DNA of 64,000 nucleotides from the NCBI GenBank assembly GCA_017621525.1, contig JAGASX010000014.1:13232-77231 (forward strand), in the 5' to 3' direction. The stretch comes from Clostridia bacterium. GTDB lineage: Bacteria > Bacillota > Clostridia > Christensenellales > UBA1242. Made by a program: the position numbers and the translations under genes. The notes beneath the pieces were generated by a model. The model was not told the DNA's origin. It was given only the letters and a program-made list of their open reading frames with translations, and did not search any database. Below, piece after piece: positions 949 through 56,230 of this stretch; the first letter of the stretch is position 1, and each line of letters begins with the position of its first letter.

Positions 949-1100
949 CGCTAAATTTCGGTTTTCCCTCCAATACCCCCTTTCCCACGCTTGAAAATTT
1001 CCGCTGGACAATTTTCTAAGCAATAAGGGCACCACCAAATATTTAAACCGGGCAAAGCCCTTCCTGTTTAAAATTTGGTTTGGTGGGATTTTTATTTTAT

Positions 1101-1152: not shown

Positions 1153-1260
1153 TGTCGATTGCCAAAATTCGAGCAAATTATATATTATTTTAAAATATTC
1201 TATTTTGTTTAAAAATGCGTATATTTTATAATTAAAATATAAAATAAAAAGGCATAAAAA

Positions 1261-1488: not shown

Positions 1489-1500
1489 AAATGCACTTAA

Positions 1501-1525
1501 AATAGGTTTCGCACCTATTTTTTTG
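1501..1525 (+). terminator. Intrinsic terminator
   Basis: AATAGGT-ttcgc-ACCTATT followed by a T-run. Confidence 0.6.
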
Positions 1526-1580
1526 TATATGTTTGCAATTTGCAATTCTTTGTGTTATCATATTGCAAAAGGGGAAACTT

Positions 1581-1943: not shown

Positions 1944-2463
1944 AAAATATTTATCACCTTTTTTAGCAGTGTCAATTTTTGTTTGCGTGCTTTTGCTTGA
2001 TTTGCTTACAAAAGAATTTATCATAAAAAACCATATTCCAAACGTGGGCGATTCTATAAAGATTATGCCCGGTTTTATCAATTTTGTTTATGTTAAAAAC
2101 ACAGGTGCTGCATGGGGTATGCTTGCTGGCAGACCTATTTTTTTGATTGTTATTTCACTTGTTGTTATGGGGCTTTTGCTTACCTATTATATTTTGCGAC
2201 AAAAAAAATTGGGCTCAAAATGTTCTGTTCTGTTTGGAATAAGCGTGGGGTTGATTGCCGGCGGTTGCATAGGCAATATGATTGACCGCATTTTCCTTGG
2301 CTATGTTCGCGATTTTATAAATTTTGAATTTATCAAGTTTCCTGTCTTTAACTTTGCCGACATTGCCCTTACAATTGGCACAATAATTATGCTTGTTTAC
2401 TTCGTTTTCTTTTTCAATAAGGAAGAAAAGTTGTTAAAAGGCGGTGGACAAGATGAAAGGTGA
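1894..2463 (+). CDS. lspA: Lipoprotein signal peptidase II
   Basis: Motifs FVYVKNTGAAWGML, GNMIDR and FPVFNFADIALTIG. The true start may be TTG 1933, since ATG 1894 overlaps sepF by 50 nt. Confidence 0.88.
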   Translation: MKNCILFCQREWKLKNKKYLSPFLAVSIFVCVLLLDLLTKEFIIKNHIPNVGDSIKIMPGFINFVYVKNTGAAWGMLAGRPIFLIVISLVVMGLLLTYYILRQKKLGSKCSVLFGISVGLIAGGCIGNMIDRIFLGYVRDFINFEFIKFPVFNFADIALTIGTIIMLVYFVFFFNKEEKLLKGGGQDER

Positions 2464-3343
2464 GTTCATTGTTGAAGCCTCCAACCAACGTTTGGATAAC
2501 ATCGTGCTGACGGCACTGCCAGACCTTACACGTTCTCATATAAAACAACTTATTGATGACGGCAACATTTTGCTTAACGGTAAAAAGGTAAAGGCGGGTG
2601 AAAAGGTGAAAGCGGGGCAGGTTGTTGCTTATCAAATTTCTCAATCACAGCCACTTGACGCCCAAGCGCAAGATATTGATTTTGAAATTGTATATCAAGA
2701 TGATGACCTGCTTGTTATCAACAAACCCCAAGGGCTTGTTGTTCACCCATGCACTTCAACCAAAGACGGCACGCTTGTAAATGGACTTTTGTTTAAAATA
2801 AAAGATTTAAGTGGAATAAATGGAACTCTTCGCCCGGGCATTGTGCATAGGCTTGATAAAAACACCTCTGGTCTTATGCTTGTTGCAAAAAATGATATGG
2901 CACACGCTTCACTTGCCCAGCAAATTAAAGAAAAAACTTGCAAAAGAAAGTATCTTGCACTTGTTGAGGGGCATTTTAAAGAAAAAGAGGGCAGAATTGA
3001 AACATTTATCGACCGCGACAAAAAAGATAGAAAAAAAATGGCAGTATCCCAACATGGAAAACTTGCCATAAGCGATTATAAGGTGGTGCAAAGTTTTGAG
3101 GGCTATGACCTTGTTGAATTTTCACTTCAAACGGGACGTACTCATCAAATTCGCGTGCATTGTAAAATGAAAAATCACCCTGTTGTGGGAGACGATGTTT
3201 ATGGGCACGCGGTAAAGGGCTTGCGAGGGCAACTGCTTCATTCATATTACATTCAGTTTACACAACCTCGTACAAATGAAATTATCGATTTTCAAATAGA
3301 TTTACCTAAACATTTTAAAGATTTTATAAATAAATTAAAATGA
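2444..3343 (+). CDS. rluD: 23S rRNA pseudouridine synthase, RluD/RluA family with N-terminal S4 domain
   Basis: S4-like N-terminus, catalytic HRLDKNTSGLMLVAKN and GRTHQIRVH motifs. lspA-rluD adjacency is typical of Firmicutes. Alternative start ATG 2453. Confidence 0.9.
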   Translation: MDKMKGEFIVEASNQRLDNIVLTALPDLTRSHIKQLIDDGNILLNGKKVKAGEKVKAGQVVAYQISQSQPLDAQAQDIDFEIVYQDDDLLVINKPQGLVVHPCTSTKDGTLVNGLLFKIKDLSGINGTLRPGIVHRLDKNTSGLMLVAKNDMAHASLAQQIKEKTCKRKYLALVEGHFKEKEGRIETFIDRDKKDRKKMAVSQHGKLAISDYKVVQSFEGYDLVEFSLQTGRTHQIRVHCKMKNHPVVGDDVYGHAVKGLRGQLLHSYYIQFTQPRTNEIIDFQIDLPKHFKDFINKLK

Positions 3344-3377
3344 ATTAAAAAATACAAAAAAATTAAAAAATCAAACA

Positions 3378-3413
3378 AAAAACTCGACTTTTGCTGTCGA
3401 GTTTTGTTTTTTT
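3378..3413. terminator. Bidirectional intrinsic terminator between rluD and the convergent gene
   Basis: ACTCGAC-ttttgct-GTCGAGT flanked by an A-run and a T-run. Confidence 0.75.
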
Positions 3414-3450
3414 AGGGACGCAAGAACAACACGAACCAAGTGAGTGTTCC

Positions 3451-3831
3451 TTATTCTGGCATTTGAAATTCTGTGATACCAATATGCTTTTTCTTTCTTT
3501 CAATTTCAATCAAACTTGAAATTAAATCTCTTACCTTATATGGGTTTGCAATGTGGCGCAGGTGGAATTTAGGCGCTGATGCATCATTAGTTGAAATTTC
3601 AATTGTTCCTGTTTTAAAAATTTTATCAAACAAAGAAATTGTAAGTGATACGTCATAGCATCTGTATATGTTAATTTCATCAATAATTGCAGAAAGAAAA
3701 CCCTTGTGGCGGAAAAATTTTACCCATTCGCCCTCTTTTTTCACTATGTAATAGCGATAAAAAGAAATTGGCATGCCAAGGTGTCTTTTTCTATCTTTCC
3801 ATAATACTTCACAATCTTTATCAAATTTCAT
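3451..3831 (-). CDS. PH-domain (bacterial bPH/YdbT-like) protein
   Basis: The 126-aa pattern ...ISFYRYYIVKKEGEWVKFFRHKGFLSAIIDEINIYRCYDVSLTISLFDKIFKTGTIEI... resembles bacterial PH domains. GGAGGA sits 5 nt before ATG 3831, so the track's TTG at 3843 is inside the RBS. Confidence 0.6.
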   Translation of the reverse strand: MKFDKDCEVLWKDRKRHLGMPISFYRYYIVKKEGEWVKFFRHKGFLSAIIDEINIYRCYDVSLTISLFDKIFKTGTIEISTNDASAPKFHLRHIANPYKVRDLISSLIEIERKKKHIGITEFQMPE

Positions 3832-3934
3832 TGTGTCCTCCAAAAATATCTTACTGCTATTTTAAAACAAAAATACGCAAAAGTAAAGAGTTTTTTATAA
3901 AATTATTTAACAATTATAAAATATCAACAAAAAG

Positions 3935-4246
3935 TGTCGCACCTGCGTTGACAACCAGCCCCCTCGTCGAGGGGGCTGGCAACCTGTATGGGTTGACAGG
4001 GGGACAATTAAGTGAAAAGTGAAGAGTGAAAAGTGAAAAGGTAAGACGCCCCGCTTCGCGCCAAAAGCGACCTGCGCCCGCTTTTGACGCTCCGCTTATA
4101 AGGTTGGATATTATAAAAAACCTATCGAGGAGGCAGACACTCAATTTAGAGTGGGGGTGTTCAAATAAGTGTAAAGTGAAAAGTGAAAAGGTAAGCCTGC
4201 CCCGCTTCGCACGCTCGGCGACAACTCCGCCATCGCTTGGAGACGA
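3935..4246 (+). repeat. Mosaic of GC-rich modules (D fragment, E1, B1, C1, B1', C-like)
   Basis: D fragment GTGTCGCACCTGCGTTGAC 3935-3953; E1 3957-4005; purine heptads B1 4006-4045 and B1' 4167-4195; C1 with stem CAAAAGCG (4062-4069) / CGCTTTTG (4079-4086). Each has homologues at 28.2, 39.4, 42.3 and 55.5 kb. Confidence 0.9.
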
Positions 4247-4382
4247 CGTGTTCTATAATTCAAATAATGATTCTGAAATAAATATTTCAAAAATCTACGT
4301 CCCAACTGCAAGTGTTAGTGCGTATAAAAGTGCCGACGGTTGGACTGATTATTCAACTTATATCACCGGCTATTCATTTTAA
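4247..4382 (+). pseudogene. Orphan 3' fragment of a BspA-type leucine-rich-repeat surface protein gene
   Basis: VFYNSNNDSEINISKIYVPTASVSAYKSADGWTDYSTYITGYSF* aligns with the C-terminus of the intact LRR protein (MFYNCSSSLVIYVPTASVSAYKAATYWKNYSRKIQGKSF*, ending at 41579). Upstream sequence is repeat mosaic with no start or signal peptide. Confidence 0.7.
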
Positions 4383-4390
4383 ACAATAAA

Positions 4391-4441
4391 AAGTCCATGC
4401 AGGGGCGAGGGCGTGCCCTCTGTCCGCATGGGCTTTTTTTA
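4391..4441. terminator. Long GC-rich hairpin plus T-run (bidirectional terminator)
   Basis: Outer stem CCATGC/GCATGG, inner stem GAGGG-cgtg-CCCTC, then T7. It lies between the LRR fragment and the convergent small gene. Confidence 0.7.
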
Positions 4442-4518
4442 GAAAAGAATTTAGGCTTTTTTATGAGAAAATTTTAATTTTTGAAGGTTTTTGACAATAT
4501 TTTTAAAGTTTTGGCTTT

Positions 4519-4713
4519 TTATTTGCAGGTGTTACCGCATGAGCCACAAAGAAGTAAAAGCACGATTAGTGTGCAACAATCAATTCCGCATCCGCCGTTG
4601 CCATTGCCACAAAGACATTGTAAAAGCAGGTACCAGATGATAAGGTTTCCACAATCGCACCCGCCGTTGCAACTGCCAAAGCCGTTGCCACAGGTGTTGT
4701 TGAAAAAGTTCAT
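4519..4713 (-). CDS. Cys/Gly-rich 64-aa peptide with two short hydrophobic segments (YjcZ-like tiny sporulation/membrane protein or RiPP-like precursor)
   Basis: Perfect AGGAGG lies 5 nt upstream of the ATG. Sequence is MNFFNNTCGNGFGSCNGGCDCGNLIIWYLLLQCLCGNGNGGCGIDCCTLIVLLLLCGSCGNTCK, with 13 Cys by my count. Confidence 0.65.
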   Translation of the reverse strand: MNFFNNTCGNGFGSCNGGCDCGNLIIWYLLLQCLCGNGNGGCGIDCCTLIVLLLLCGSCGNTCK

Positions 4714-4944
4714 TTGTTCCTCCTAAAATATGTAATTATGAAAGTTTTGCTTTCACATTAACATACTATTTTAAATTGCTTAAAAATGTGCAAGATAAAT
4801 ATATTTTTTATTTAAAAGCCTTGAAATTAAAAGAATGTAAAATAATTGTAAAGAAAAAGCCATTCGACAAAACAAGTGCTTTTTCGTCAGCATAAAAGAA
4901 TGTGCCAAACACAAAATATTTTTGTTTTTATATAGCGATTTTTG

Positions 4945-4973
4945 TTGACTTAAAAGAGAAAATAGTTTACAAT
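4945..4973 (+). promoter_or_regulatory. SigA-type promoter for the large surface protein gene
   Basis: TTGACT (4945-4950), 17-nt spacer, TACAAT (4968-4973). Confidence 0.6.
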
Positions 4974-5015
4974 AAGTTGTTGATAAATACATGATGTAAT
5001 TTATAGGAGATTTTT

Positions 5016-8000
5016 ATGGCAAACACTAAAACAAAATTCAAAGGCGCACTTAAAGCAACAGCCATTGGCTTTGCACTTGTACTTTCCAGTGCATTTTTCC
5101 CTGCAAATGCAATTGCAAACGCAATTGATTATAAGGAACCAGAATCTGCAAGAATCAACACCAGCAGAATTGCAGTTGACGGAAACAACCAATCTTTCGC
5201 AGTAAAGAGAGGCGCAACTGTTTCAATTCCAGAAGGTGAATACCTTTATAAAAAGGCAGACGCTTCACAAGGCACTCATATCATTGGCGGAGCGAAAGCG
5301 GACAACATCACAGAAAGTGAAGTTATTGTAACTTACAAAGCAACCGGCGCAAGAGTTGCTGTTTCTGCTGAGGGCACATTTGTTGCAAGCAAAGTGGGCA
5401 CTTATGTTATCACATACCGCGTTGTTGATAACAAAATTGAATACACATATGAACAACTTGTAAAAGTTGAAGCAAGCGAGGCATCATTCGAGTTTGAAGC
5501 AAACGACAAAAATGTGATTCCAAGCGTTTATGATGTTACCCTTGCAAACGGCAAAGACGTTGTTCTTCCACTTCCAACAGTTGTTGATGAAAATGGAGAA
5601 ACAATTCTTTCAGCAGAAGACGGGGAATACTATGTTCTTGGTAAAGACACTTCTGGCATTACAGGCGACAAAGATGTTTATGTAAACATCAGCCTTGTAA
5701 ATGGTGGCGAAAGTGTTGCCCTTCAATATCGCACAAACTACGCTGGCGAAAAAGAATATTATATTTCTGGCGAGGACCTTTCAGAACTTGACGATGAGGA
5801 CAAGGCCGTTCTTGAAGGACAAGATATTAAAATTTACTATTCTTTCTATCAAAAAAGCACAGATGTGTTTATTGCTTCAACAAGCAAAACATTTACTGTT
5901 AAGAAAAATTACTACTATAGCGACGCTGATAAAGATACAACAGGTTACAGCCTTGTTACTTCTTTGGTTGGAACAAGACCAGACAGCGCAATTGTTGGCG
6001 TAGAAAAAACTCTTCCAACAGTTTCTGCTACAACAGGTGAGAAAAACACTCCTGCAAGCGAAAATGTTGAAGTTTACTATGACCTTGTAGTATACAAAGC
6101 AAACGACAACGGCAACTATAACGATAACAACGACGTAACAGAAGATGTTATCACCAAAGATGGTGCATTTAAGGCAATTGAAGAGGGCTCTTACAAATTT
6201 GTTTACAAAGTAAAAGACTTCTATGGCAACGCTGGAAGTGAATCTTCAACAACATTTACAATCAAAAATGTTAAAGATACCATTTCTGCAACTGCATACA
6301 TTTATGATGCAAGCCAAAAAGCATATTTTGACGGCGAAAACAACCCAACTTCTTATGATGAAGAAAACAACAAGTATGACAGTGCACAAAATCTTTTGAA
6401 AACTCAAACAGTAAACCGCAATATTGTTATGTATGCAATTGGCGGAACTGACAACATGGTTGCAAAAGAGGATATTGCACTTAAACGCGTTATTAAAGAT
6501 AACAGCGGTATTGAAAGATTTGTAATCGACCAAGAAGAATACCACGCATACAACCTTATTTTCGCACCAGGACTTCCAACCGGCGCGGGCAGTGGCTCTG
6601 TTCTTCAACAAATTGTTTCAGACAACTACCAAATCTTCAAAGCAATGACTATGAAAGGTCTTGATATTGAGAACGATGAGGTTATCGCGCAATATCTTAA
6701 AGAAAACGGGTACCTTATTGTAACAACCCAGTTCAATAAGGCCCTTGACGGAAGCGAAATTGTTACAGGTCTTACCGAAGATGACGAAACCGCACTTATT
6801 CAAATGAGAGATGCAGGTTACGCATATATCGCACCAAAAACAGTAGGATATGAATTTAAGGAACAAACTTACACATTCTACTATCACGCAAACGACAATC
6901 AAAACAGCAATAAAGAGGCAACTCTTTACCAAACTGTAAAACTTACAGACGGTTTCACAGATGCAACCATTCCAACACTTACTTTTGCAACAGACTTGCA
7001 ATCTGCATATCTTCCAACCGAAAGTTTTGAATTTAAAGTTGCAACTGCAACCGACACAATCGATTCAAGACTTGAAACTGTAACTGCTTACAGATACCTT
7101 GGCTCTGATAGAAAAGGACTTCCAGCAAGCGAAAAGGCTGGCACAACTTCAAAACTTTCATACGTTCTTCAAAATGCAAACAAAAACCTTATGGAAGACA
7201 CAAGTAAGTGGTATGCCAAAGAGGGCAAAATTGAAAGCGAAGGATGGTTTATCGACAACGAGGCAACAACATACACCGTAGACCTTGCAAATAAACCAGA
7301 TGGTGCAAACTATGTTGAAATTTTGGCTTATGCAATTGACGACTACGGCAATGTTGGTTTCTTCAACAAGGTAATCAGAATTGCTGACGCAACAGACGCA
7401 GGCGCACCTGTTCTTTACAAAGTTATCAATGCTCCAGATGCAACAGAATATACCGCTCCAAGCGAAATTGCACTTCCAACACTTTACTTCAATGATGACA
7501 ATGTAAACTATATGCACGCAAAAGTAAATGTGTACAAACTTATCAAAAATGCTGACGGCGTTGTAACAGGAAAAACTCTTGTTCAAAACTCTAACATGAA
7601 AACAAGTTACGACACCTATGAAGACTATTTCAAAGTTGATGCAGGCGTATTTAAGGCATCTGTTGAGGGCGATTATCAAGTGGCAGTAACAGTTGTTGAC
7701 AGTGGCAACCACAGCGTAACATCTTACTTTGCTTATAAAGTTGTTGAGGGCGAAAGCACAGAAGAACCAAAAATCAACAACATCACTTCTGACCCAATTG
7801 AACTTCTTCCAGGTGAGGCTCACTACCTTGTTGCGCCAACATTCACAATGGCTAAAAACAGCAAATACGGATATATTGGCGTTGAAGAACAAGATGACGC
7901 GTTTACTTCAACTTACTACAACGTATCAGCAGTTTCTGCAACAAGCAGTGATTATGAACTTGATGAATCATACTTCATTGGAAACAGCGAAGGAACATAT

Positions 8001-28140: not shown

Positions 28141-28560
28141 AAGCACCCCCGCGGACTTGCAACCCGCGGGGACGCTTTTTTACGTCGCACCCGCGTTGAC
28201 CTTCGACCAACGCAGACGCTTCCGCCCCGCTCCGCTAAATCAGTTTGAATTAAACAAGCCCCCTCGTTGAGGGGGCTGTCGGCAAAGCCGACTGGGGGAG
28301 TTGAATTAAGTGAAAAGTTAATAGTGAAAAGTGAAAAGGTGTGCCCCGCTCCGCACGCTTGGCGAGTGGTGCCCGCCTTGCACGCTTCGCTAAATAAGAT
28401 TTATTAAACGCCCGTTGTTAGTCATTCGCATACCGCACCGCACTAAAAGCGACAATAATCCTCCTCGCCGAAGGGCTGTCAACCCGCATGGTTTGACTGT
28501 GGGAGTTTACACTTTTGTCGCCTTTCAGACAACTCCCTCCGCCCGGCGTTCAACATAGAT
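28141..28560 (+). repeat. Mosaic of GC-rich modules downstream of rplS (F1, D2, E2, B2, C-like and further GC-rich hairpins)
   Basis: F1 stem CCCCGCGG (28147-28154), loop ACTTGCAAC, stem CCGCGGGG (28164-28171) plus T-run. D2 stem 28191-28198 / 28208-28215. E2 28256-28300. B2 28301-28343. Confidence 0.9.
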
Positions 28561-38928: not shown

Positions 38929-38979
38929 GCCTTCCCCTTTGGCCGTAGGAAGGTGGCTCGAAGAGCCGGAAGAGGCTCA
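38929..38979 (+). repeat. Type-A two-hairpin module, copy A1
   Basis: GCCTTCCCCTTTGGCCGTAGGAAGGTG-GCTCGAAGAGC-CGGAAGAGGCTCA. Confidence 0.95.
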
Positions 38980-39062
38980 TTGTGGAACAAACAAAATTGA
39001 AGATTTAAAAAATCTTAACGATAGTCGTCCAGCGTAAGGCTGGCGGAAGAAGGATTTTTTAT
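38980..39062 (+). promoter_or_regulatory. Module G copy 1: portable 5' UTR ending in an SD and ATG
   Basis: TTGTGGAACAAACAAAA...CTTAACGATAGTCGTCCAGCGTAAGGCTGGCGGAAGAAGGA is homologous to 42569-42649. The ATG positions coincide (39063 here, 42650 there). Confidence 0.75.
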
Positions 39063-39116
39063 ATGCATATTTTCACCCTTTTTGCAGATAATATTGGCAA
39101 GGAGGGGAAAACATGA
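39063..39116 (+). CDS. Possible 17-codon upstream ORF (MHIFTLFADNIGKEGKT) coupled by ATGA to the next gene
   Basis: SD AAGGA lies 8-9 nt upstream. The stop TGA (39114-39116) overlaps ATG 39113. Confidence 0.3.
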   Translation: MHIFTLFADNIGKEGKT

Positions 39117-39271
39117 AAGAATTTACAATGATTTTGGGCTTCGGCATGGGGCTTGTTGCTGGCGCACTTTTATATAAACACTCCAAAGATGCCAAAACTG
39201 TTGTCGACAAGGGCGAAAAAGCAGTTAAAGAAGAAGTCAAAAAAATGGAAAATAAAACCAAGAAAAATTAA
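39113..39271 (+). CDS. Small (52 aa) YtxH-like membrane protein
   Basis: Not in the ORF track (under 60 aa). GGAGGGG lies 5 nt before the ATG. MKEFTMILGFGMGLVAGALLYKHSKDAKTVVDKGEKAVKEEVKKMENKTKKN is one TM helix plus a Lys/Glu amphipathic tail. A terminator follows. Confidence 0.55.
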   Translation: MKEFTMILGFGMGLVAGALLYKHSKDAKTVVDKGEKAVKEEVKKMENKTKKN

Positions 39272-39282: not shown

Positions 39283-39347
39283 AAGCCTTCCCTTGGGGGA
39301 AGGTGGCTCGAAGAGCCGGAAGAGGGATAATACGCCCTCTTTTTTTG
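39283..39347 (+). repeat. Type-A module copy A5 whose trailer doubles as an intrinsic terminator stem
   Basis: AAGCCTTCCCTTGGGGGAAGGTG-GCTCGAAGAGC-CGGAAGAGGG, then AGAGGG-ataatacg-CCCTCT plus T7 (39320-39347). Confidence 0.9.
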
Positions 39348-39600
39348 TCGCACCTGCGTTGACCTTGCGACCAACGCAGACGCTCCCGCCCCGCCAGCCC
39401 GCTCCGCTTATAAGGTTGAAATAAAAAAATACAAGTGTTTGTCGACAAATTTGATTATGTAGTTGAATTAAGTAAAAAGTGATAAGTGAAAAAGGTAACT
39501 CCGCCCCGCTTCGCACCAAAAGCGACCTACGCCCGCTTTTGACGCTCCGCTAAATAGGCGTCGCACGCTTGGCGACCAACGTCCGCCTCGCCCGCCCCAA
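39348..39600 (+). repeat. Mosaic D3 - B3 - C3 - GC-rich tail
   Basis: D3 has stem CTGCGTTG (39354-39361) / CAACGCAG (39372-39379), with GTCGCA/TGCGAC interleaved. B3 39463-39499. C3 stem 39517-39524 / 39534-39541. Confidence 0.9.
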
Positions 39601-39679
39601 AAAAAACTTAAAATTTTTCAAAAAACATTCGATAAAAATTTGCATAATTCGACATAATATGATAAAATACTTAAAAAAT

Positions 39680-39752
39680 AAGCCTTCCCCGCACGCGGGG
39701 AAGGTGGCTCGAAGAGCCAGAAGGGGGAAACCTCCATCTTTGAGGGAGGTGG
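39680..39752 (+). repeat. Type-A module copy A6 plus CCTCC/GGGAGG hairpin inside the 5' leader of the LRR gene
   Basis: AAGCCTTCCCCGCACGCGGGGAAGGTG-GCTCGAAGAGC-CAGAAGGGGG (39680-39727), then CCTCC-atctttga-GGGAGG. The gene's SD GGAAGGAG lies at about 39770-39777. Confidence 0.9.
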
Positions 39753-39785
39753 CAAGGCGTATGCTTTGACGGAAGGAGTTAATAT

Positions 39786-41579
39786 ATGAAACTTAAAACC
39801 AAATTATGTTCAACAATTGTTATGTTCTGCCTCACCATTGTTACACTTATGGTGGGTGTTTGGGCTGTAAAAAGTGCAAACGTAAACATTGGCGGTACAC
39901 TTTCCTTTGTCGCACAAGGTATAGAGGCAACAATTTCCAAAGGCACCATGTCAAACGGCACTTGGCAAACCGCCTCCCACGCAACAACCAAACTTAAACA
40001 AATTGAAATCACAAAAGCAGACACAACCTCAACCCTTTCAAGTAAATTCTCTTCTTGGTCTGGCATAAACCTCAACTTCAATGAAAATGGGGACGATATA
40101 ACAATTTCTTTCTCAATCACAAACAACTCTGATACAAACTCCATTGCGGTGGACGTTTCAACCAGTTACGCATCAGCAACCAACTGCACAATCGCAATAG
40201 ACACCTCTTCCGCAAGCATAGAGCCTAATAAAACCCAAAACTTCACCCTCACTATGAAAATAACCGATAAAGACATCAACGCATCTATGACCAACTTCAC
40301 CGTAATTTTCAATATGCAACTTGTTCAACCTGCACCACCTGTTGATGCCGAAGATGTTTCCTACCTTACTTTCTCTTATGACGACACAACAATGACTGCA
40401 AGTGTAACTGACTGTGATACATCTATTGCGGAAGCGATAATTCCGGAAAGAGTATTATATAGTGATGCAGTTTATGAAACAGTAAGCATAGGAATCCAAG
40501 CCTTCTATAAATGCACAGGCCTTACCTCAATCACAATCCCGGATAGTGTTACAAGTATAGGAAATAATGCCTTCCTAGATTGCACAGGCCTTACAAGTAT
40601 AAGCGTAGACAGTGAAAATAGTGTATATGACAGCAGAAACAATTGCAATGCAATTATTGAAACGGCAACTAATACTCTTATTCAAGGCTGTAAAAATTCA
40701 ACAATTCCCGACAGTGTAACAAGTATAGGTGAGAGTGCCTTTAATGATTGCACAGGTCTTACCTCAATCACAATACCAAATAGTGTAACAAGTATAGGAG
40801 ATTATGCCTTCACTAGATGCACAGGTCTTACCTCAATTACTATCCCCGATAGCGTAACAAGTATAGGAAATAATGCCTTCTTGTTTTGCGCCGGACTTGC
40901 AAGTGTAACAATTGGCAATGGCGTAACAAGTATGGGTAATGCTGCTTTCCAAGAGTGCTCACAGCTTACTTCAATCACAATACCAAACAGTGTAATAAGT
41001 ATAGGAATTAATGCCTTCTCTGGTTGCACGGGGCTTACAAGCATAAGTGTAGATAGTGGGAATAGTGTATATGACAGCAGAAATAATTGCAATGCAATTA
41101 TAGAAACGTCAACTAATACTCTTATCAAAGGTTCTAACAATTCAACAATTCCTAATACTGTAACAAGTATAGGAGATTCTGCCTTCGATGGTTGCACAGG
41201 GCTTACCTCAATCACAATTCCAGATAGCGTAACAAGTATAGGCGAGTCTGCCTTCCGTGATTGCACAGGACTTACCTCAATTACAATCCCAGATAGCGTA
41301 ACAAGTATAGGAGGTTATGCCTTCTCTGGTTGCACAGGACTTACAAATGTAACAATAGGCAGTGGTGTAACAAGTATAGGAGGTTATGCCTTCTCTGGTT
41401 GCACAAACCTTGCCGAAGTGAATGTAAAAGCAACATCTGTGCCAAATGGGGGGAATAATATGTTCTATAATTGCTCTTCATCGCTTGTGATATATGTACC
41501 AACAGCAAGTGTAAGTGCCTACAAAGCGGCAACATATTGGAAAAATTATTCAAGAAAAATTCAAGGTAAAAGTTTTTAA
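39786..41579 (+). CDS. BspA-type leucine-rich-repeat surface protein with an N-terminal SipW-style signal peptide and TasA-like module
   Basis: N-terminus MKLKTKLCSTIVMFCLTIVTLMVGVWAVKSANVNIGGTLSFVAQ parallels the two small proteins at 56898 and 57622. About 14 repeats of TSITIPDSVTSIG..AF..CTGL. C-terminus IYVPTASVSAYKAA.YWKNY. Confidence 0.88.
   Translation: MKLKTKLCSTIVMFCLTIVTLMVGVWAVKSANVNIGGTLSFVAQGIEATISKGTMSNGTWQTASHATTKLKQIEITKADTTSTLSSKFSSWSGINLNFNENGDDITISFSITNNSDTNSIAVDVSTSYASATNCTIAIDTSSASIEPNKTQNFTLTMKITDKDINASMTNFTVIFNMQLVQPAPPVDAEDVSYLTFSYDDTTMTASVTDCDTSIAEAIIPERVLYSDAVYETVSIGIQAFYKCTGLTSITIPDSVTSIGNNAFLDCTGLTSISVDSENSVYDSRNNCNAIIETATNTLIQGCKNSTIPDSVTSIGESAFNDCTGLTSITIPNSVTSIGDYAFTRCTGLTSITIPDSVTSIGNNAFLFCAGLASVTIGNGVTSMGNAAFQECSQLTSITIPNSVISIGINAFSGCTGLTSISVDSGNSVYDSRNNCNAIIETSTNTLIKGSNNSTIPNTVTSIGDSAFDGCTGLTSITIPDSVTSIGESAFRDCTGLTSITIPDSVTSIGGYAFSGCTGLTNVTIGSGVTSIGGYAFSGCTNLAEVNVKATSVPNGGNNMFYNCSSSLVIYVPTASVSAYKAATYWKNYSRKIQGKSF
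40470..41420 (+). repeat. Intragenic tandem LRR-coding repeats (about 69-bp / 23-codon units, plus one roughly 140-bp duplication)
   Basis: Recurrent ACAAGTATAGG...GCCTTC...TGCACAGG(C/T)CTTACCTCAATCACAAT(A/C)CC units. SISVDSENSVYDSRNNCNAIIETATNTLIQG (about 40.60 kb) is duplicated as SISVDSGNSVYDSRNNCNAIIETSTNTLIKG (about 41.04 kb). Confidence 0.9.
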
Positions 41580-41616: not shown

Positions 41617-41787
41617 TGAGCCTCTTCCGCCAACCTGGGGAGGCACCAAACAAGTTTAGCGCGGGCACGGCAGAGATAAACTCGTGCCTAACCGCTACTT
41701 GTTCGGTTCCCCGTCCCAATCTCCCTCCCTCATAAGGACGCACTTACGTGCGATTGACTTGCACCTTCCCCGGTTTCGGGGAAGGCA
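41617..41787 (-). repeat. Type-A module copy A13 (inverted) with a roughly 125-nt insertion (module H2) at the hairpin-2 position
   Basis: On the minus strand it reads AAGCCTTCCCCGAAACCGGGGAAGGTG-[insert]-GCGGAAGAGGCTCA. Insert 41636-41730 is homologous to 900-1000 (CGCGGGCACG...CTAACCGCTA...TCGGTT.CCC..CCCAAT..CCCT). Confidence 0.85.
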
Positions 41788-41814
41788 AGAACCTAAGGAA
41801 GATTTTTTATAATA

Positions 41815-41845: not shown

Positions 41846-42124
41846 ATGTTCAAGGTCGGGCATCTCGGGTTGATAGAGTTTTACCAACTGCCTCGTGTGT
41901 ATTACGCTCCACCAAAGCCACCTTATGGCACACCAAAAGGTCCTTTTAATGATGCTCCCGTCAGGGCCTGACATGGTTCAAGGGTTTTGATTGCATAAGA
42001 CCTTGATTTCATCACGCAAAGCACACGCACATTTTTGACAAAACTAAACCGCGCCGAGCATTCAACCCCACATATAGCGGATTGTGGGTACAGAGCACCG
42101 CTAACTCTCCGTTTAGCCCGATAT
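41846..42124 (-). ncRNA. ffs: Signal recognition particle RNA, long Bacillus-type (scRNA) with Alu domain
   Basis: The minus strand reads ...GGAGAGTTAGCGGTGCTCTGTACCCACAATCCGCT... (Alu domain, compare B. subtilis GGGGAGGTAGCGGTGCCCTGTACCTGCAATCCGCT). It also reads GAACCATGTCAGGCCCTGACGGGAGCATCATTAA (domain IV, compare GAACCATGTCAGGTCCGGAAGGAAGCAGCATTAA). 5' TCGGGC pairs with 3' GCCCGA. Promoter is TTGCAA-17-TATCAT just upstream. Confidence 0.88.
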
Positions 42125-42205
42125 ATGAATGATAGCATACTGCGAAAAATTTTGCAAGAAAAAAAACATTTTTGATGATAAAAAAATAAAATTAAATATA
42201 ATCAG

Positions 42206-42235
42206 TTGTAATTTTTTGACAGATTATGTTACAAT
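42206..42235 (+). promoter_or_regulatory. Probable SigA promoter (extended -10) driving the long repeat-built leader
   Basis: TTGTAA (42206-42211), 18 nt, TGtTACAAT (42227-42235). Confidence 0.5.
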
Positions 42236-42295
42236 GTCCTTATAAAAGCCTCGTGTAAGACCGCGGGAAGTGCCTTATAGGGGCGGTGGGTGTCA

Positions 42296-42568
42296 AAGCC
42301 TTCCCTTGGGGGAAGGTGTCGCCTTGGCGACGGAAGAGGGACAACTTTAAGTGAAGAGTGAAAAGTGAAGAGTGAAAAGGTGAGCACGCTCCGCTAAACA
42401 AGTTAAGCCTTCCCCTTTGGCCGTAGGAAGGTGCCCGCAGGGCGGAAGAGGCTCATACAAAAGCCTTCCCTTGGGGGAAGGTGTCGCCTTGGCGACGGAA
42501 GAGGGACAACTTCAAGTGAAGAGTGAAAAGTGAAAAGGTAAGTCCGTTGGACTTGCGGAAGAGGCTCA
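42296..42568 (+). repeat. Array A2-B4-(C-like)-A3-A4-B5 of GC-rich modules
   Basis: A2 42296-42340 and A4 42461-42505 are identical (hairpin 2 TCGCC-tt-GGCGA). A3 42405-42455 is identical to A7 at 55579. B4 42341-42384. B5 42506-42542. The 9-nt CGGAAGAGG is duplicated at 42496-42504 and 42556-42564. Confidence 0.95.
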
Positions 42569-42649
42569 TGGTGGAACAAATAAAAATAGAAAATTTAGAA
42601 AAGACTAACGATAGTCGCCCAGCGTAAGGCTGGTAAGAAGGAAATATTT
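42569..42649 (+). promoter_or_regulatory. Module G copy 2: 5' UTR/SD immediately upstream of the HEPN-CBS gene
   Basis: TGGTGGAACAAATAAAA...GACTAACGATAGTCGCCCAGCGTAAGGCTGGTAAGAAGGAAATATTT then ATG. Homologous to 38980-39062. Confidence 0.75.
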
Positions 42650-43381
42650 ATGGCAGACAAAACACAAAAAACAAATTCAAAAAGATTTTTGGACGCATAC
42701 AACAGCATTGACTATGCACTTAAAACAAGGTATGGCTTAAACAGAGCTATGGGCTTTTCTGACCTTATCCGCAAAAGCGTTGTCAACAATTACGTAGTGC
42801 GTAAATATGAAGATGACCTTATCGATTTTGGCAGACTTCGCAATGCCATTGTGCATAACAGCAATGAAAATTTTGTAATTGCCGAGCCTCATGATGAGGT
42901 TGTTGCCCAAATAGAGCACATTGAAAAACTGCTTACCACTCCACCAAAGGTGTTGGATACTGTTGGACAACGCGATGTTCTCACTTCACAGGCAGGCAAA
43001 AGCATGAGGGAAATTATCACCCTTATGTCATCATCAAATTACAGCAACATTCCAATTTACCGTGGGCAAGACCTTTTGGGCATTGCCAATGGTCAAAAAA
43101 TTATCAACTCTTTTGGTCAATATCTGCTTGCAGGGGGCAAAGCCGATGTTTTTCTTGACCATGTGCAAATTGAAGATATGCTTTCTTCCCTTGCCAACAG
43201 CATATATTATGTTGTAAAGCGTGCCGACTGCACAATTGAAGAGGCGCTTAATGAATTTAACAACAACCACAAACTTCTTGCCATACTTTTCACCAAAAAC
43301 GGCACTTCAAATGAATTGCCTGTGGGGATTATGACAGGTGCAAACTTTGTTGACGCACAAAATGTGCTTGAAAACTATTAA
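42650..43381 (+). CDS. HEPN-like (RNxxxH) domain fused to a CBS pair
   Basis: The N-terminal about 95 aa are helical with FGRLRNAIVHN (the R-N-x3-H HEPN signature). The C-terminus has two CBS motifs (MREIITLMSSSNYSNIPIYRGQDLLGIANGQKII; IEEALNEFNNNHKLLAILFTKNGTSNELPVGIMTGANFV). Confidence 0.7.
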   Translation: MADKTQKTNSKRFLDAYNSIDYALKTRYGLNRAMGFSDLIRKSVVNNYVVRKYEDDLIDFGRLRNAIVHNSNENFVIAEPHDEVVAQIEHIEKLLTTPPKVLDTVGQRDVLTSQAGKSMREIITLMSSSNYSNIPIYRGQDLLGIANGQKIINSFGQYLLAGGKADVFLDHVQIEDMLSSLANSIYYVVKRADCTIEEALNEFNNNHKLLAILFTKNGTSNELPVGIMTGANFVDAQNVLENY

Positions 43382-43720: not shown

Positions 43721-46700
43721 ATGTATAAAAAAGTGGAGGCAAAACTTGACTTTGTTGCCAATGAACAAAGGGTTTTAAAATTTTGGGAAGAGAACAATAT
43801 CATCAAAAAGGGGCTGGAACTTAACAAAAACAGCGACAAAACTTTTGTTTTGCATGACGGCCCACCAACCGCCAACGGCAAACCACATATTGGGCACGTT
43901 CTTACCCGCGCAATGAAAGACGTTATCCCTCGTTTTAAGGCAATGAAGGGGCATTATATCTTCCGCAAAGCCGGCTGGGATACTCACGGACTGCCTGTTG
44001 AGGTTGAAGTTGAAAAGAAACTTGGTTTCAATGGCAAAAAAGACATAGAAAACTATGGCGTGGATAAGTTTATTGAACTTTGCAAGGGCTCGGTTTGGGA
44101 ATACAAATCCATGTGGGAAGATTTGACCAAAAAAATTGGCTATTGGGTGGATATGGACAACCCTTATATTACCTATGACAACAACTATATAGAGTCTGTT
44201 TTCTGGGCGCTTAAAGAAATGGATAAAAAGGGGCTTATCTATCAAGGCCATAAGGTTGTGCCATATTGCCCACGCTGTGGCACCTCACTTTCAAAGGCAG
44301 AACTTGAAAATGGGGATAACTATAAAAACCTTAAAGAAAATTCGGTTTTTGTTAAATTTGCATCAGCAGAAGAAGCAAACACATACTTCCTTGTTTGGAC
44401 AACCACACCTTGGACACTTCCTTCAAACGTAGCCCTTTGTATGAATCCAAATGAAGTGTACGCAAAAGTAGAAGCGGACGGCACAAAATATATCATGCTT
44501 GAAAAACTTCTTCCAACACTTTTTGAAGAGGGCAGTTTTAAGGTTTTGGAACGCAAAACAGGCAAAGAATATGAATATCACAAATATCTTCCTCTTTTTG
44601 ATTACGCAAAAGATATTGTAAAAACAGGCTATTTTGTAACAGTTGACGACTATGTAACCACCGAGGACGGAACAGGCATTGTTCACATTGCCCCTGCATT
44701 TGGTGAAGATGACGCCCTTGTCGGCAAAAAATATGGCATAGATTTTGTTCAATTTGTTGATAAATATGGCAAAATGACAGAAGAAACAGAGTTTGCTGGC
44801 CTTTTTGCCAAAGATGCAGACAAACTTGTTATTGAAAAACTTGAAAAAGATGGCAAAATGTTTAAGGTGCTTCCGTTTGAGCACTCTTACCCACACTGCT
44901 GGCGTTGCAAAAGCCCACTTCTTTACTATGCACAAGATGCTTGGTTTGTAAAAACCACCGCAATTCGCGACCAACTTGTTGCAAACAATCAAGAAATTTA
45001 TTGGCTTCCAGACCATATCAAAAATGGCAGAATGGGCAACTTCCTTGCCAACAACATTGATTGGAATATCAGCCGAAACCGTTTCTGGGGCACACCTCTT
45101 CCTTTCTGGAAGTGTGAATGTGGGCATATTCACGTGATTGGCAGTGTTGCAGAACTTAAAGAACTTTCTGGCGTAACCGGCGACCTTGACCTTCACAAAC
45201 CAACACTTGATAAAATAACATTCCCATGCCCACGCTGTGGCAAACAGATGACACGCACACCAGAAGTTATGGATTGCTGGTTTGACAGCGGTTCTATGCC
45301 ATTTGCACAATACCACTACCCATTTGAAAATAAGGAAACTTTTGAAAAGGCGTTCTGTGCCGACTATATCAGTGAGGGCATAGACCAAACTCGTGGCTGG
45401 TTTAACACACTTCTTTCGGTAAACACCGCAGTTTTTGGCAAGGCACCATTCAAAGCCTGCAACGTGCTTGGACTTGTGCTTGACAAAAACGGATTAAAAA
45501 TGAGCAAAAGTCTTAAAAATGGTGTTGACCCTTGGGAAGTGCTTGAAAAATATGGTGCAGACGGCGTAAGATGGTATTTTATGTCTTGCTGTAACCCAGC
45601 ACAAGGCCTGCCTTTCATTGAAGAAAACCTTGTTGACCTGCAAAGAAAATTTATGGGAACACTTTGGAATGTTTACTATTTCTATGTGCTTTACGCAGAA
45701 ATTGACCAAATAGACCCAACAAAATATTCACTATCAGACTGCAAACTTTCATTCCTTGATAAGTGGCTGTTGTCAGACTTTAACGCACTTATAAAAGAGG
45801 TTGACGCAGGGCTTGAAAAATATGATATGCAGTCGCCAGCACGCGCAATCAGCGAATTTGTGGATAAACTTTCAAATTGGTATATCCGCCGTTCTCGTGA
45901 ACGCTTCTGGGGCAGTGAAGAAACCGATGATAAACGCTCTGCATACAAAACCCTTTACGAGGTGCTTGTTGGGCTTGCAAAACTTGTTGCACCATTTGTT
46001 CCATTTATTGCAGAAGAAATTTATCAAAACCTTGTAAGAAGTCTTGATAAAACAGCACCAGAAAGCGTGCACTTTTCATCTTACCCTGTTGCAGATGAAA
46101 AGATGATTGATTTTTCACTTAACGAAGGCATGAACAAGGTGCTTGACATTGTGCTTTTGGGCAGAACATCACGCAGTGCAAGCGGGGTTAAAAATCGTCA
46201 ACCACTTTCAAAGGTTATGATTTGCTCGGCTGAAAAAATTGAACTTAATGAAGAACTTGCATCTCTTGTTAAAGATGAACTTAATGTTCTTGATATAGAA
46301 TTTTTGCATGACGCCGACGAGTATGTGTCTTATGAACTTAAACCTCAACTTAAAACTTTAGGGCCTAAATACGGCAAAAATCTTGGTGCAATCCGTGAAT
46401 TTTTGGCAAAAACCAACGCAAATGAGGCTGTTCGCAAGGTTAAATCGGGCGAGGTGCTTTCATTTGAGGCAAACGGACAGACAATTGAAATTGGCGAGGC
46501 TGACCTTTTAATTGCCCTTAAAAACAAAGAAGGTTACGCAAGCGACAGCAATGGAAACATCACTGTTGTGCTTGACACCACTCTTGACCAAAATCTTATC
46601 AATTTGGGCACTGTCAGCGAATTTGTAAGCAAGGTGCAAAACTTGCGTAAAGACAGCGGACTTGAAGTTACAAATCATATTGCCCTTGAAGTGAGCGGTG

Positions 46701-46852
46701 ATGAAAGTCTTGTTGAAGTTGTTATGAATTCAAAAGAAGAAATTGCCAAAACTGTGCTTGCAGATACCTTTATAAAAGGAAATAATGGCGATTATTCAAC
46801 AGAACTTGTCATTGGCGAGAAAAAACTTGTTGCATACATTTGCAAAATTTAA
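43721..46852 (+). CDS. ileS: Isoleucyl-tRNA synthetase (type 2, 1043 aa)
   Basis: HIGH motif PPTANGKPHIGH, KMSKS as LKMSKSLKN, CP1 editing region, zinc-binding CPRCG/CWRC motifs. Confidence 0.97.
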   Translation: MYKKVEAKLDFVANEQRVLKFWEENNIIKKGLELNKNSDKTFVLHDGPPTANGKPHIGHVLTRAMKDVIPRFKAMKGHYIFRKAGWDTHGLPVEVEVEKKLGFNGKKDIENYGVDKFIELCKGSVWEYKSMWEDLTKKIGYWVDMDNPYITYDNNYIESVFWALKEMDKKGLIYQGHKVVPYCPRCGTSLSKAELENGDNYKNLKENSVFVKFASAEEANTYFLVWTTTPWTLPSNVALCMNPNEVYAKVEADGTKYIMLEKLLPTLFEEGSFKVLERKTGKEYEYHKYLPLFDYAKDIVKTGYFVTVDDYVTTEDGTGIVHIAPAFGEDDALVGKKYGIDFVQFVDKYGKMTEETEFAGLFAKDADKLVIEKLEKDGKMFKVLPFEHSYPHCWRCKSPLLYYAQDAWFVKTTAIRDQLVANNQEIYWLPDHIKNGRMGNFLANNIDWNISRNRFWGTPLPFWKCECGHIHVIGSVAELKELSGVTGDLDLHKPTLDKITFPCPRCGKQMTRTPEVMDCWFDSGSMPFAQYHYPFENKETFEKAFCADYISEGIDQTRGWFNTLLSVNTAVFGKAPFKACNVLGLVLDKNGLKMSKSLKNGVDPWEVLEKYGADGVRWYFMSCCNPAQGLPFIEENLVDLQRKFMGTLWNVYYFYVLYAEIDQIDPTKYSLSDCKLSFLDKWLLSDFNALIKEVDAGLEKYDMQSPARAISEFVDKLSNWYIRRSRERFWGSEETDDKRSAYKTLYEVLVGLAKLVAPFVPFIAEEIYQNLVRSLDKTAPESVHFSSYPVADEKMIDFSLNEGMNKVLDIVLLGRTSRSASGVKNRQPLSKVMICSAEKIELNEELASLVKDELNVLDIEFLHDADEYVSYELKPQLKTLGPKYGKNLGAIREFLAKTNANEAVRKVKSGEVLSFEANGQTIEIGEADLLIALKNKEGYASDSNGNITVVLDTTLDQNLINLGTVSEFVSKVQNLRKDSGLEVTNHIALEVSGDESLVEVVMNSKEEIAKTVLADTFIKGNNGDYSTELVIGEKKLVAYICKI

Positions 46853-55402: not shown

Positions 55403-55407
55403 ATAAA

Positions 55408-55560
55408 AGCACCCCTGTCGACCGCTGACCGACAGGGACGCTTTTTTTTGTGGAAGTGGGACGAAACACCGCCGACGACTTGCAACCGTCGGCGACGTTT
55501 TTTTTGTGTCGCCCGCTCGGCGACCGCTGACCGCCTCGCCCGCTCCGCTTATAAGGTTGG
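55408..55560 (+). repeat. Cluster of three GC hairpins with conserved 9-nt loops (F0, F2, h9) plus a C-module tail
   Basis: F0: CCCTGTCG (55413-55420) - ACCGCTGAC - CGACAGGG (55430-55437) plus T8. F2: CGCCGACG (55470-55477) - ACTTGCAAC - CGTCGGCG (55487-55494) plus T8. h9: GGCG (55519-55522) - ACCGCTGAC - CGCC (55532-55535). Tail CGCTCCGCTTATAAGGTTGGA as at 4088 and 39409. Confidence 0.9.
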
Positions 55561-55578: not shown

Positions 55579-55777
55579 AAGCCTTCCCCTTTGGCCGTAG
55601 GAAGGTGCCCGCAGGGCGGAAGAGGCTCAATTTTTGAAAACAAAAACAAATCAAGCCTTCCCCTTTAGCCGTAGGAAGGTGTCGCGTAGCGACGGAAGAG
55701 GCTCAATTATTTAAAACAAAAACAAATCAAGCCTTCCCCGAAACCGGGGAAGGTGCCCGAAGGGCGGAAGAGGCTCA
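55579..55777 (+). repeat. Tandem triplet of type-A modules (A7, A8, A9) with conserved 23-nt A-rich linkers
   Basis: A7 55579-55629 (hairpin 2 GCCC-gca-GGGC). A8 55653-55705 (TCGC-gta-GCGA). A9 55729-55777 (GCCC-gaa-GGGC). Linkers are ATTTTTGAAAACAAAAACAAATC and ATTATTTAAAACAAAAACAAATC. Confidence 0.97.
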
Positions 55778-55784
55778 AAAAAAC

Positions 55785-55813
55785 TTGCAATTTAATTTAG
55801 AATTATATAAAAT
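55785..55813 (+). promoter_or_regulatory. Promoter of the DUF559 gene. Geometry implies a leaderless or near-leaderless mRNA.
   Basis: TTGCAA (55785-55790), 17 nt, TAAAAT (55808-55813). The ATG at 55820 is only 6 nt downstream and has no SD. Confidence 0.5.
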
Positions 55814-55819
55814 AAAGTT

Positions 55820-56173
55820 ATGAAAACGCCGAATAAAAAACTTACGCCAAATGCTCAAATATTGCGGAAAAATATGACAAAAGAAGAAAGACATTTATGG
55901 TATGATTTTTTGTCAACTTATCCTATACAATTTAAAAGACAAAAGGTTGTAGGCAGGTATATTGCAGATTTCTTTTGCCCGAAAGCCAAAATTATAATTG
56001 AAATTGACGGCTCTCAACATTTTAGTGAAGATGGATTGCAGTATGATAAAGAGAGAACGGACTTTCTTAATAAATTTGGAATTATGGTTATAAGATTAAC
56101 AAATATTGATATAAATCAAAGGTTTAGGTCATCATGTGAATTTATTGATTTAAAAGTTAAAGAGAGGTTATGA
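55820..56173 (+). CDS. DUF559 (Vsr-like/PD-(D/E)xK fold) endonuclease-domain protein
   Basis: LTPNAQILRKNMTKEERHLWYDFL...FKRQKVVGRYIADFFCPKAKIIIEIDGSQH...DKERTDFLNKFGIMVIRLTN is the typical DUF559 layout. It is visibly more AT-rich, with TTA/ATA/AGA codons that are uncommon in neighbouring genes. Confidence 0.85.
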   Translation: MKTPNKKLTPNAQILRKNMTKEERHLWYDFLSTYPIQFKRQKVVGRYIADFFCPKAKIIIEIDGSQHFSEDGLQYDKERTDFLNKFGIMVIRLTNIDINQRFRSSCEFIDLKVKERL

Positions 56174-56230
56174 GCCTCTTTCGTCATTCGCTAACGCTCA
56201 TGCCACCTTCCCCGGTTTCGGGGAAGGCTT
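56171..56230 (-). repeat. Type-A module copy A10, inverted. It begins at the DUF559 stop codon.
   Basis: TGAGCCTCTTTCGTCATTCGCTAACGCTCATGCCACCTTCCCCGGTTTCGGGGAAGGCTT is the reverse complement of AAGCCTTCCCCGAAACCGGGGAAGGTG-[21 nt]-GAAAGAGGCTCA. Hairpin 1 is identical to A9. Confidence 0.93.

Follow-up and report, generated by a model that had tools for sequence, protein, structure and literature searches.

Why does the gene for a CBS-domain protein in an uncultured gut or rumen Clostridia genome carry a 414-nt leader composed largely of repeated hairpin modules, and does this leader regulate the gene or has it accumulated in front of it? The gene lies in a 64-kb stretch of contig JAGASX010000014.1 (hereafter the window; 64,000 nt, numbered from its first letter), and the repeat array occupies the space between it, on the plus strand, and the divergent gene for the signal recognition particle (SRP) RNA, on the minus strand. 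Our analysis suggests that the leader is probably a recent, strain-variable accretion of selfish hairpin repeat modules that is tolerated in the 5' untranslated region (UTR), and not a dedicated regulatory leader.

The module array between promoter and start codon

The array is preceded by a sigma-70-type promoter with the extended -10 box TGTTACAAT, which a consensus scan ranked as the best site of the region. This promoter, singled out by the first-pass annotation of the window, is orthologous in relatives: the sequence TTGTAA-N18-TG(C/T/A)TACAAT is shared by three close relatives (L230, L231 and L235), and the promoter is also present in L013, L014 and L017. The scan was limited to sigma-70-type consensus sites and, at a threshold score of at least 9, detected no other promoter-like site on the plus strand between 42236 and 42660; a terminator scan detected no terminator-like site on the plus strand of the array, in agreement with the earlier statement that no terminator interrupts it. 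With the -10 box on one side of the array and the ATG on the other, and with no promoter-like or terminator-like site on its own strand, transcription of the array as a 5' UTR is very probable; co-transcription is the default reading, supported by the lack of any candidate other than the old promoter. Public metatranscriptomes seldom contain the organism; in the best run, a rumen metatranscriptome (X25), its SRP RNA was found at a depth of 3.4, and no contig covered the CBS gene or the remaining leader.

An unrecognised promoter inside or after the G module described below might instead drive the gene, in which case the array would lie outside the mRNA and the modules would merely part two divergent promoters. 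The scan sees sigma-70-type sites only, and the transcript is one that we infer; however, no -35/-10 pair reached the threshold in this stretch, the conserved promoter is intact with its spacing as in the relatives, and G, which is found elsewhere inverted and embedded in an A module, does not behave as a promoter cassette would. On balance we consider such an arrangement improbable.

The modules follow one another in the order A-B-C-A-A-B-half A-G (Table 1); other orders that we saw are A-G, A-A-A and A alone. Module A opens with (A)AG and continues with a first hairpin (CCTTCCC(C)-loop-(G)GGGAAGG), the dinucleotide TG and a second hairpin with a 4-7-bp stem of free sequence and usually a GNA triloop, followed by the purine tail GGAAGAGG and often by CTCA. 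Its core, CCTTCC-N4-16-GGAAGGTG, occurs 13 times in the window, as compared with 0.00 occurrences expected, and always outside the 53 called open reading frames (ORFs). Full A copies number 11, located in five intergenic regions and all on the plus strand, and two partial inverted copies occur at 41761-41788 and 56201-56230. The B tracts are purine heptads, (GTGAAAA/GTGAAGA)n, whose pattern GTGAARAGTGAARAG has 11 matches in the window vs 0.02 expected, and they run on into GGTAAG and a GC-rich C part; six such B-C composites exist in the window, both leader copies being truncated. The G unit consists of TGGAACA, about 35 nt and then AACGATAGTCGCCCAGCGTAAGGCTGG, and each of its two window copies has an A tail (GGAAGAGGCTCAT) before it and a degenerate tail after it (CGGAAGAAGGA in G1, TAAGAAGGA in G2). 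Because L230 has two G units, inverted relative to the CBS gene, between the hairpin 1-TG portion and the tail of an A module, and because further A-G composites occur in Logan contigs of the same metagenomes, G appears to be an optional insert of the A element that is not bound to start codons. The G core AACGATAGTCGNCCAGCGTAAGGCTGG had 0 matches when metagenomes were scanned for it.

A repeat finder and separate scans recovered each module where the first-pass annotation had put it, including the identical pair A2 and A4, which is part of a 165-nt direct duplication (42295-42372 vs 42460-42537, 97%), and A3, whose identical copy lies 13 kb away. The leader was also said to be built entirely from repeats, which does not hold for its first segment: nhmmer found no second copy of 42236-42295, only its own locus, in the sequences searched. 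As for the statement that module G supplies both the Shine-Dalgarno sequence (SD) and the ATG, the former part stands and the latter does not. The SD of the CBS gene (AAGAAGGA) is a module tail common to G1, the relatives having GGAGG (L231) and GAGG (L230), and the ATG and about 8 nt before it match the repeat-free leader of L230, with the bases ATATTTATGGCAG common to both. The SD is apparently the only functional piece given by the repeats, the ATG being ancestral, and a long module-built 5' UTR with an SD from its last module is well supported by the comparison with relatives.

We rejected an assembly artefact as the source of the array, which is identical in two independent assemblies, with three runs holding 97% of its words. 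Also rejected were a 19-codon ORF from 42568 in the leader, which shows no conservation in G1, and minus-strand ORFs of 52-58 aa in the leader, which lie wholly within repeats. The 31-mers of the heptad tract (42347-42423, and also 4006-4042, 4163-4199 and 28304-28340) reach depths of 216-7364 in gut and rumen metagenomes and of 81-805 in RNA-seq runs from bovine gut and wastewater, the organism's own depth being 4-16. Because these depths are far above the organism's own, the purine heptad tract is common to many other, partly transcribed, sequences, and the high depth over 42347-42423 was discarded as a signal of the leader locus.

Table 1. Positions of the leader modules, the neighbouring genes and the DUF559 element in the window.
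Feature	Positions	Strand	Details
SRP RNA gene, large bacterial type	41856-42121	-	Rfam RF01854, 167.9 bits; divergent neighbour of the CBS gene
Sigma-70-type promoter	42206-42235	+	TTGTAA, 18 nt, extended -10 box TGTTACAAT; top score of the region
First leader segment	42236-42295	+	hairpin, -18.6 kcal/mol, z -0.9
Module A2	42296-42341	+	hairpin 1 CCTTCCC/GGGAAGG, TG, hairpin 2 GTCGCC/GGCGAC, tail GGAAGAGG
Linker and purine heptad tract B4	42342-42383	+	linker CAACTTTAA; GTGAAGA/GTGAAAA units
C-like piece	42384-42404	+	3' end of a B-C composite (CACGCTCCGCTAAACAAG); aligned to 4001-4109, 28304-28396 and 39466-39558
Module A3	42405-42455	+	42405-42452 identical to the copy at 55579-55626
Module A4	42461-42506	+	identical to A2; opens the second copy of the 165-nt duplication
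Linker and purine heptad tract B5	42507-42539	+	
Half module	42540-42569	+	hairpin AAGTCC-GTT-GGACTT, tail GGAAGAGGCTCAT, no hairpin 1
G unit	42572-42633	+	second copy at 38975-39053
Degenerate module tail	42634-42642	+	TAAGAAGGA, SD of the CBS gene; common to G1 (CGGAAGAAGGA)
Spacer and start codon	42643-42652	+	ATATTT spacer, apparently ancestral; window (A)TATTTATGGCAG, L230 GTATTTATGGCAG
CBS-domain protein gene	42650-43381	+	243 aa; followed by ileS at 43721-46852
DUF559 element	55729-56230	+	forward A module, 44-nt spacer with promoter-like site, ORF 55820-56173, inverted A-like module

Relatives, strains and the regulatory alternatives

A scan with the CBS protein over 185,579 species genomes yielded 80 orthologous loci (94-49% identity), with the SRP RNA gene upstream in 57 and the divergent SRP(-)/CBS(+) orientation of the window in 53. 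In most of these relatives, 100-250 nt separate the CBS gene from the 5' end of the SRP RNA gene, as compared with 528 nt in the window. Orthologues whose promoter matched most strongly mostly have the extended -10 box 19-49 nt before the coding match. Closer relatives were obtained through exact-protein look-ups, and their leaders measure 34 nt at 84% protein identity (L235), 30 nt at 88% (L231) and 111 nt at 92% (L230), the last with unrelated content and no A, B or G. The comparison of orthologous leaders, which the first-pass annotation had named as a check, thus came out against a conserved device: the array is absent at all three levels of identity, and module A is absent from the upstream sequence of the CBS orthologues in 78 further species (0/78 loci with such sequence). 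A profile of module A found one copy in 851 kb of related-species loci vs 13 in the 64-kb window; this copy belongs to the closest species (L007), in which the contig is broken off precisely where the gene starts.

Strains of the species itself differ in the array. One strain assembly (L002) is the same as the window except that 42295-42459, a single 165-nt unit, is missing, leaving a leader of 249 nt; in the strain of run X4, 42236-42347 (112 nt) is swapped for 65 other bases, which begin immediately behind the -10 box; and one in run X11 has an extra heptad (AAGTGAA, +7 nt) after 42513. The comparison of loci shows the short leader of 30-34 nt and the promoter to be ancestral, and the array, which is very young, to be private to this species among those examined and still changing between strains.

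These observations bear directly on a further proposal of the first-pass annotation, that the leader could sequester or expose the ribosome-binding site. In a dedicated riboregulatory leader of this kind the CCUUCC arms would act as anti-SD sequences and the purine tails as decoy or real SDs, and their pairings would switch translation of the CBS gene. The tails are indeed SD-like, one of them being the actual SD, and in the DUF559 elements of the CCTCCCTT type described below the tail GGAGGGA stands 6 nt before the ATG. The leader RNA as a whole also folds better than its shuffles (-136.3 kcal/mol, z -2.8). The predicted fold, however, leaves both the SD and the AUG unpaired, in the minimum free energy (MFE) as well as the centroid structure; modules of the A2/A4 type form two local hairpins in it, and every CCUUCC arm has its own adjacent GGAAGG partner, a nearer and stronger one. 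The only hint of an alternative structure comes from A3, which when folded alone pairs its 5' arm with its tail and not within hairpin 1, the latter being weaker in this copy; the gene's SD is not involved. At the gathering score, Rfam matched only the SRP RNA and tRNA in the window, and an E-value scan of 42150-42700 returned only chance-level matches. Considered as a cis-regulatory leader, then, the array has no conservation across species, no RNA family, and neither a predicted occlusion of the SD nor a predicted plus-strand terminator. Because it is young, absent from relatives and strain-variable, the array does not look like a dedicated regulatory device, and we regard a riboregulatory switch as unlikely.

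The minus strand of the array behaves differently in these predictions. On it, the A modules read as hairpins with short T-runs behind them, and the terminator scan flags 42481-42464 and 39704-39683, whereas the plus orientation has no U-tract. One orientation of A would thus be transparent to transcription and the other not, which may explain why the transparent one alone is found inside transcription units. Least probable of the alternatives is a selected insulator, in which the A modules would terminate minus-strand antisense RNA from the CBS gene and ileS before it reached the SRP gene and its promoter: these two sites, an A module on the minus strand at 59126-59171 (hairpin, then CTCTTTTCTTTTTT) just past the minus-strand gene 59178-60473, and the inverted copy after the DUF559 gene (hairpin, then TTTTT) fit the idea, but relatives do without the array, the U-tracts are short (CTTTTG), and three A copies plus B and G exceed the need.

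Module tails also stand near other starts in this neighbourhood. The leader of a BspA-type leucine-rich-repeat (LRR) gene (39786-41579) contains CCTCC..GGGAGG-TG-hairpin-GGAAGGAG at 39728-39788, followed after 7 nt by the ATG; this is the architecture of the DUF559 flanks described below, with the tail as SD. Near the same gene, an A module lies 12 nt past a promoter-like -10 box (39663-39668). At 39046-39116, the tail GGAAGAAGGA after the other G copy is followed 8 nt on by a 17-codon ORF (39063-39116), whose TGA overlaps the ATG of a 52-aa ORF (39113-39271; ATGA) in what looks like translational coupling. The LRR gene is missing at the syntenic place in L235, where the order is nifS-nifU-small ORF-SRP RNA-CBS-ileS, and in L231, which has a glycosyltransferase upstream; it appears to be a lineage-specific insertion with repeat modules on its flanks.

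Module A as a repeat family and its association with DUF559 genes

Module A is widespread. With a pattern in which hairpin 1, TG and the tail were fixed and hairpin 2 was left free, we detected it in at least 120 metagenome contigs from human gut, rumen, sludge and other samples, at 36-69% GC. Among 75 unique sequences, hairpin 2 had a mean stem of 4.68 bp counted from the outside in, as compared with 0.84 bp after shuffling, and 18 different 5-nt arms; in an alignment of 50 sequences, 94.3% of cells pair vs 67.7% when shuffled, and covariation is 0.611 vs 0.146 shuffled and at most 0.115 slid. Covariation was counted for hairpin 2 only, MAFFT having misaligned hairpin 1. A constant hairpin 1 and tail, together with a hairpin 2 that is free in sequence and yet always paired, is what recognition by a protein would give. 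The copies open with (A)AGCCTTCC and close with GGAAGAGG(CTCA), and the flanks of the 11 window copies, which are A-rich and short, have no evident target-site duplication. Across 120 metagenome loci, crude ORF calls let 87/202 A copies 'overlap' an ORF, and the other copies showed only a weak same-strand excess relative to genes, to which we give no weight. A phage origin of module A was rejected, its pattern occurring in only 8 stretches of a viral collection.

A single gene recurs next to these modules. The ORF at 55820-56173 in the window encodes a 117-aa DUF559 protein (PF04480, 1.1e-26, 93.2 bits vs a cut-off of 20.6) that also matches PDB 3HRL (E 8e-13); its score for the NCBIfam DUF559 equivalog is below the cut-off (65.5 vs 218). 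Three forward A modules lie upstream of the gene and an inverted A-like module starts at its stop codon, giving inverted arms of 27 nt (55729-55755/56204-56230, 100%) and 23 nt (55758-55780/56168-56190, 83%). The A modules of the leader probably have their cognate in this element.

The association was seen in both directions. Of the 120 loci chosen for module A, DUF559 is encoded in seven, in at least six with an A module no more than about 200 nt away; the 851-kb control of related-species loci contains no DUF559. In one of the seven (L092), a DUF559 unit lies between gyrB and gyrA with inverted arms of 30 nt and 26 nt. When DUF559 homologues were picked by protein alone, the flanks of L207 proved to be A-type, and those of L208, L222 and L225-L229 had another sequence in the same architecture (CCTCCCTT-loop-AAGGGAGG, TG or GG, hairpin 2, GGAGGGATTG). 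In these elements the forward copy stops 2-4 nt short of the ATG, its tail being the SD, and from the inverted copy come the final eight codons together with a terminator-like hairpin; L224 lacks the forward copy but has the inverted one at the stop codon. Inverted modules bracket the DUF559 ORFs of the window and of L092, L116, L128, L207, L208, L222 and L225-L229. The subfamily comprises 5,867 homologues at E<=1e-10, and about 45 of the best 120 homologue clusters end in QSLSQLR, a peptide encoded by the inverted module. Profile scans identified no transposase family among the 53 ORFs of the 64-kb window. The link between module A and DUF559 is correlative, yet consistent across independent lineages, and the nuclease may spread the modules, home into them, or merely use them as its own expression signals.

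Arrays also vary around DUF559 genes elsewhere. The P0099 loci are set in strain-variable arrays of further hairpin modules. At L214/L215, which lie on the same contig, the DUF559 gene is tandemly duplicated in one sample with a 752-nt period, and from sample to sample the flanking arrays at this chromosomal place vary in length, upstream by about 270 nt and downstream by as much as about 750 nt. Heptad microsatellites border other DUF559 arrays, namely (TCTAATA)n in L212-L217, about 300-1000 nt after DUF559, and (GGAATTM)n at 1175-1200 of L224, recalling the (GTGAAAA)n tracts of the window. Past the window's own DUF559 element, a gene-free stretch of 700 nt holds two copies of a GC-rich hairpin (GCGTTTGTGGGGTTCCGGGGGAATCGCAACCCCCGG; 56328-56400 and 56537-56610), each followed by an AT-rich 62-nt repeat (56406-56467 and 56615-56676, 85% identical).

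Known repeat systems and the standing of the interpretation

The repetitive extragenic palindromes (REPs) of Proteobacteria, with the bacterial interspersed mosaic elements (BIMEs) that they form and the REPINs (REP doublets forming hairpins) associated with REP-associated tyrosine transposases (RAYTs), are short extragenic hairpin repeats of high copy number (PMC3116915, PMC3337134, PMC3733652, PMC8266576). RAYT genes are flanked by REPs (PMC3116915, PMC3337134), and REP palindromes carry a GTAG or CGTC tetranucleotide at one end (PMC3733652). The modules described here are likewise short extragenic hairpin repeats in many copies, arranged in mosaics with linker motifs and in lineage-specific sequence classes, in intergenic space that is very probably transcribed, and here too a single small nuclease-type gene is flanked by inverted repeat copies. 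In contrast to REPs, module A has no GTAG or CGTC tag (128-row alignment) and consists of two hairpins and a purine tail, with the second stem free to vary; unlike in REPINs, A copies are mostly direct or tandem and not inverted doublets, the only inverted pair being that which brackets DUF559; and the flanked gene encodes a DUF559 PD-(D/E)xK (Vsr-like) protein and not an HUH Y1 transposase. The DUF559-module arrangement therefore resembles the REP/RAYT partnership at the level of organization, and we found no published description of it, nor any report of repeats flanking DUF559 genes in those papers of the searched library that mention DUF559 or PF04480.

The BOX elements of Streptococcus pneumoniae are intergenic mosaics of about 45-60-nt units that are transcribed, structured and often placed between promoter and gene, with the fixed order boxA-(boxB)n-boxC and a unit number that varies between strains; no gene is known to be associated with them. 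The leader array is similarly a modular intergenic mosaic between promoter and gene in a low-GC Firmicute, with a strain-variable unit number, but its module order is free and module A is tied to DUF559. Correia repeat enclosed elements (CREE) and enterobacterial repetitive intergenic consensus (ERIC) sequences resemble miniature inverted-repeat transposable elements (MITEs): they are about 100-150 bp long, are co-transcribed with neighbour genes, and have long terminal inverted repeats and a TA duplication. They share with our modules the hairpins, the placement near gene starts, the co-transcription and the capacity to lend expression signals to a neighbour gene, whereas our units are shorter, stacked in arrays and without a duplication that we could see. 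A MITE shares its sequence with the terminal inverted repeats of a related autonomous element, and the modules likewise recur as the inverted ends of the DUF559 elements. Also comparable are Vsr endonuclease, the DUF559 fold (PDB 3HRL), which the window protein matches, and Vsr-like homing endonucleases; the gene of this putative nuclease is likewise small, stand-alone and selfish-looking, and differs in its flanking repeats.

In the interpretation that we favour, an accretion of selfish modules, these would have landed between the -10 box of the conserved promoter and the CBS start codon. RNA polymerase would start about 7 nt after 42235 and read through all modules, which in the plus orientation lack a U-tract, their reverse complements being those that look like terminators. 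Each A module would fold locally into two hairpins while the purine heptad tracts stayed single-stranded, and the tail of the last module (AAGAAGGA) would remain free and serve as the SD, because of which the gene would stay expressed. The array would then be cargo that the gene tolerates, not a sensor, and would affect mRNA stability or translation incidentally if at all; its changes would come from direct copies (the 165-nt unit) recombining with one another and from heptad slippage. Solo A copies may be non-autonomous derivatives of, or substrates for, the DUF559 element, as REPs are for RAYT transposases.

We extend this to a more tentative proposal, which we hold to be possible but short of probable: that module A and its lineage cousins (CCTCCCTT..AAGGGAGG-TG-hairpin-GGAGGGATTG) are the inverted ends and non-autonomous copies of undescribed tiny selfish elements whose sole gene is DUF559, a REP/RAYT-like partnership with a different enzyme that has spread through gut and rumen Clostridia. 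The modules could pile up between promoter and gene without silencing it because their purine tails would double as portable SDs.

Several points weigh against the favoured interpretation. No transposition event was seen, and all differences between strains fit recombination or slippage; we infer mobility from the number of copies, their patchy distribution and the nuclease gene that they bracket. Modules B, C and G were detected only in the window's lineage (G also in L230), with no link to DUF559 seen for them, and the DUF559 association of module A is a correlation that might equally come from homing of the nuclease into the repeats. Like most window genes, each of the 11 full A copies lies on the plus strand, as do all copies of B, C and G, a bias that could reflect selection at the RNA level or a replication-strand bias, and not neutrality. 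Finally, the transcription start site and co-transcription are predictions from DNA.

The window is a housekeeping stretch of 38% GC, in which profile scans identified EF-Tu, L21/L27/L19, topA, dprA, hslVU, nifS/nifU, ileS and yqfD. The nearest public relatives are metagenome-assembled genomes, farther ones including Candidatus Caccovivens and 'Christensenella sp. UBA1242'. The gene behind the leader had been labelled HEPN-CBS; the CBS part is retained on a weak match (Pfam 23.4 bits vs a cut-off of 24; PDB CBS proteins, E 0.0025), and the HEPN part comes down to an R-x4-H motif (RNAIVH) read in the sequence. Among other features of the window, a second hairpin family (28141-28225, 39347-39390, 55407-55504) has flanks GCACC ... 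GACGC followed by a T-run, a loop GAC-N6-ACC and freely varying stems, its copies lying right after genes and looking like intrinsic terminators. A 56-nt direct repeat (893-948 and 1097-1152; 98% identical, 204 nt apart) lies downstream of the EF-Tu gene, and an ORF of about 66 codons on the minus strand at about 4512-4713, with a GGAGG SD, is Cys/Gly/Asn-rich with CGNG-type repeats.

What the locus teaches is that a 400-nt structured leader can be debris no older than a few per cent of divergence, so that the label of riboregulator needs comparative support. The modules also break metagenome assemblies, contigs of the locus ending in the array and many DUF559 genes being found on contigs only 0.5-2 kb long. 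The DUF559 family itself is very common, and the repeat bracket and the hundreds of solo copies give it a testable function; its partnership with the modules is possibly a second, independent origin of REP-like repeat populations.

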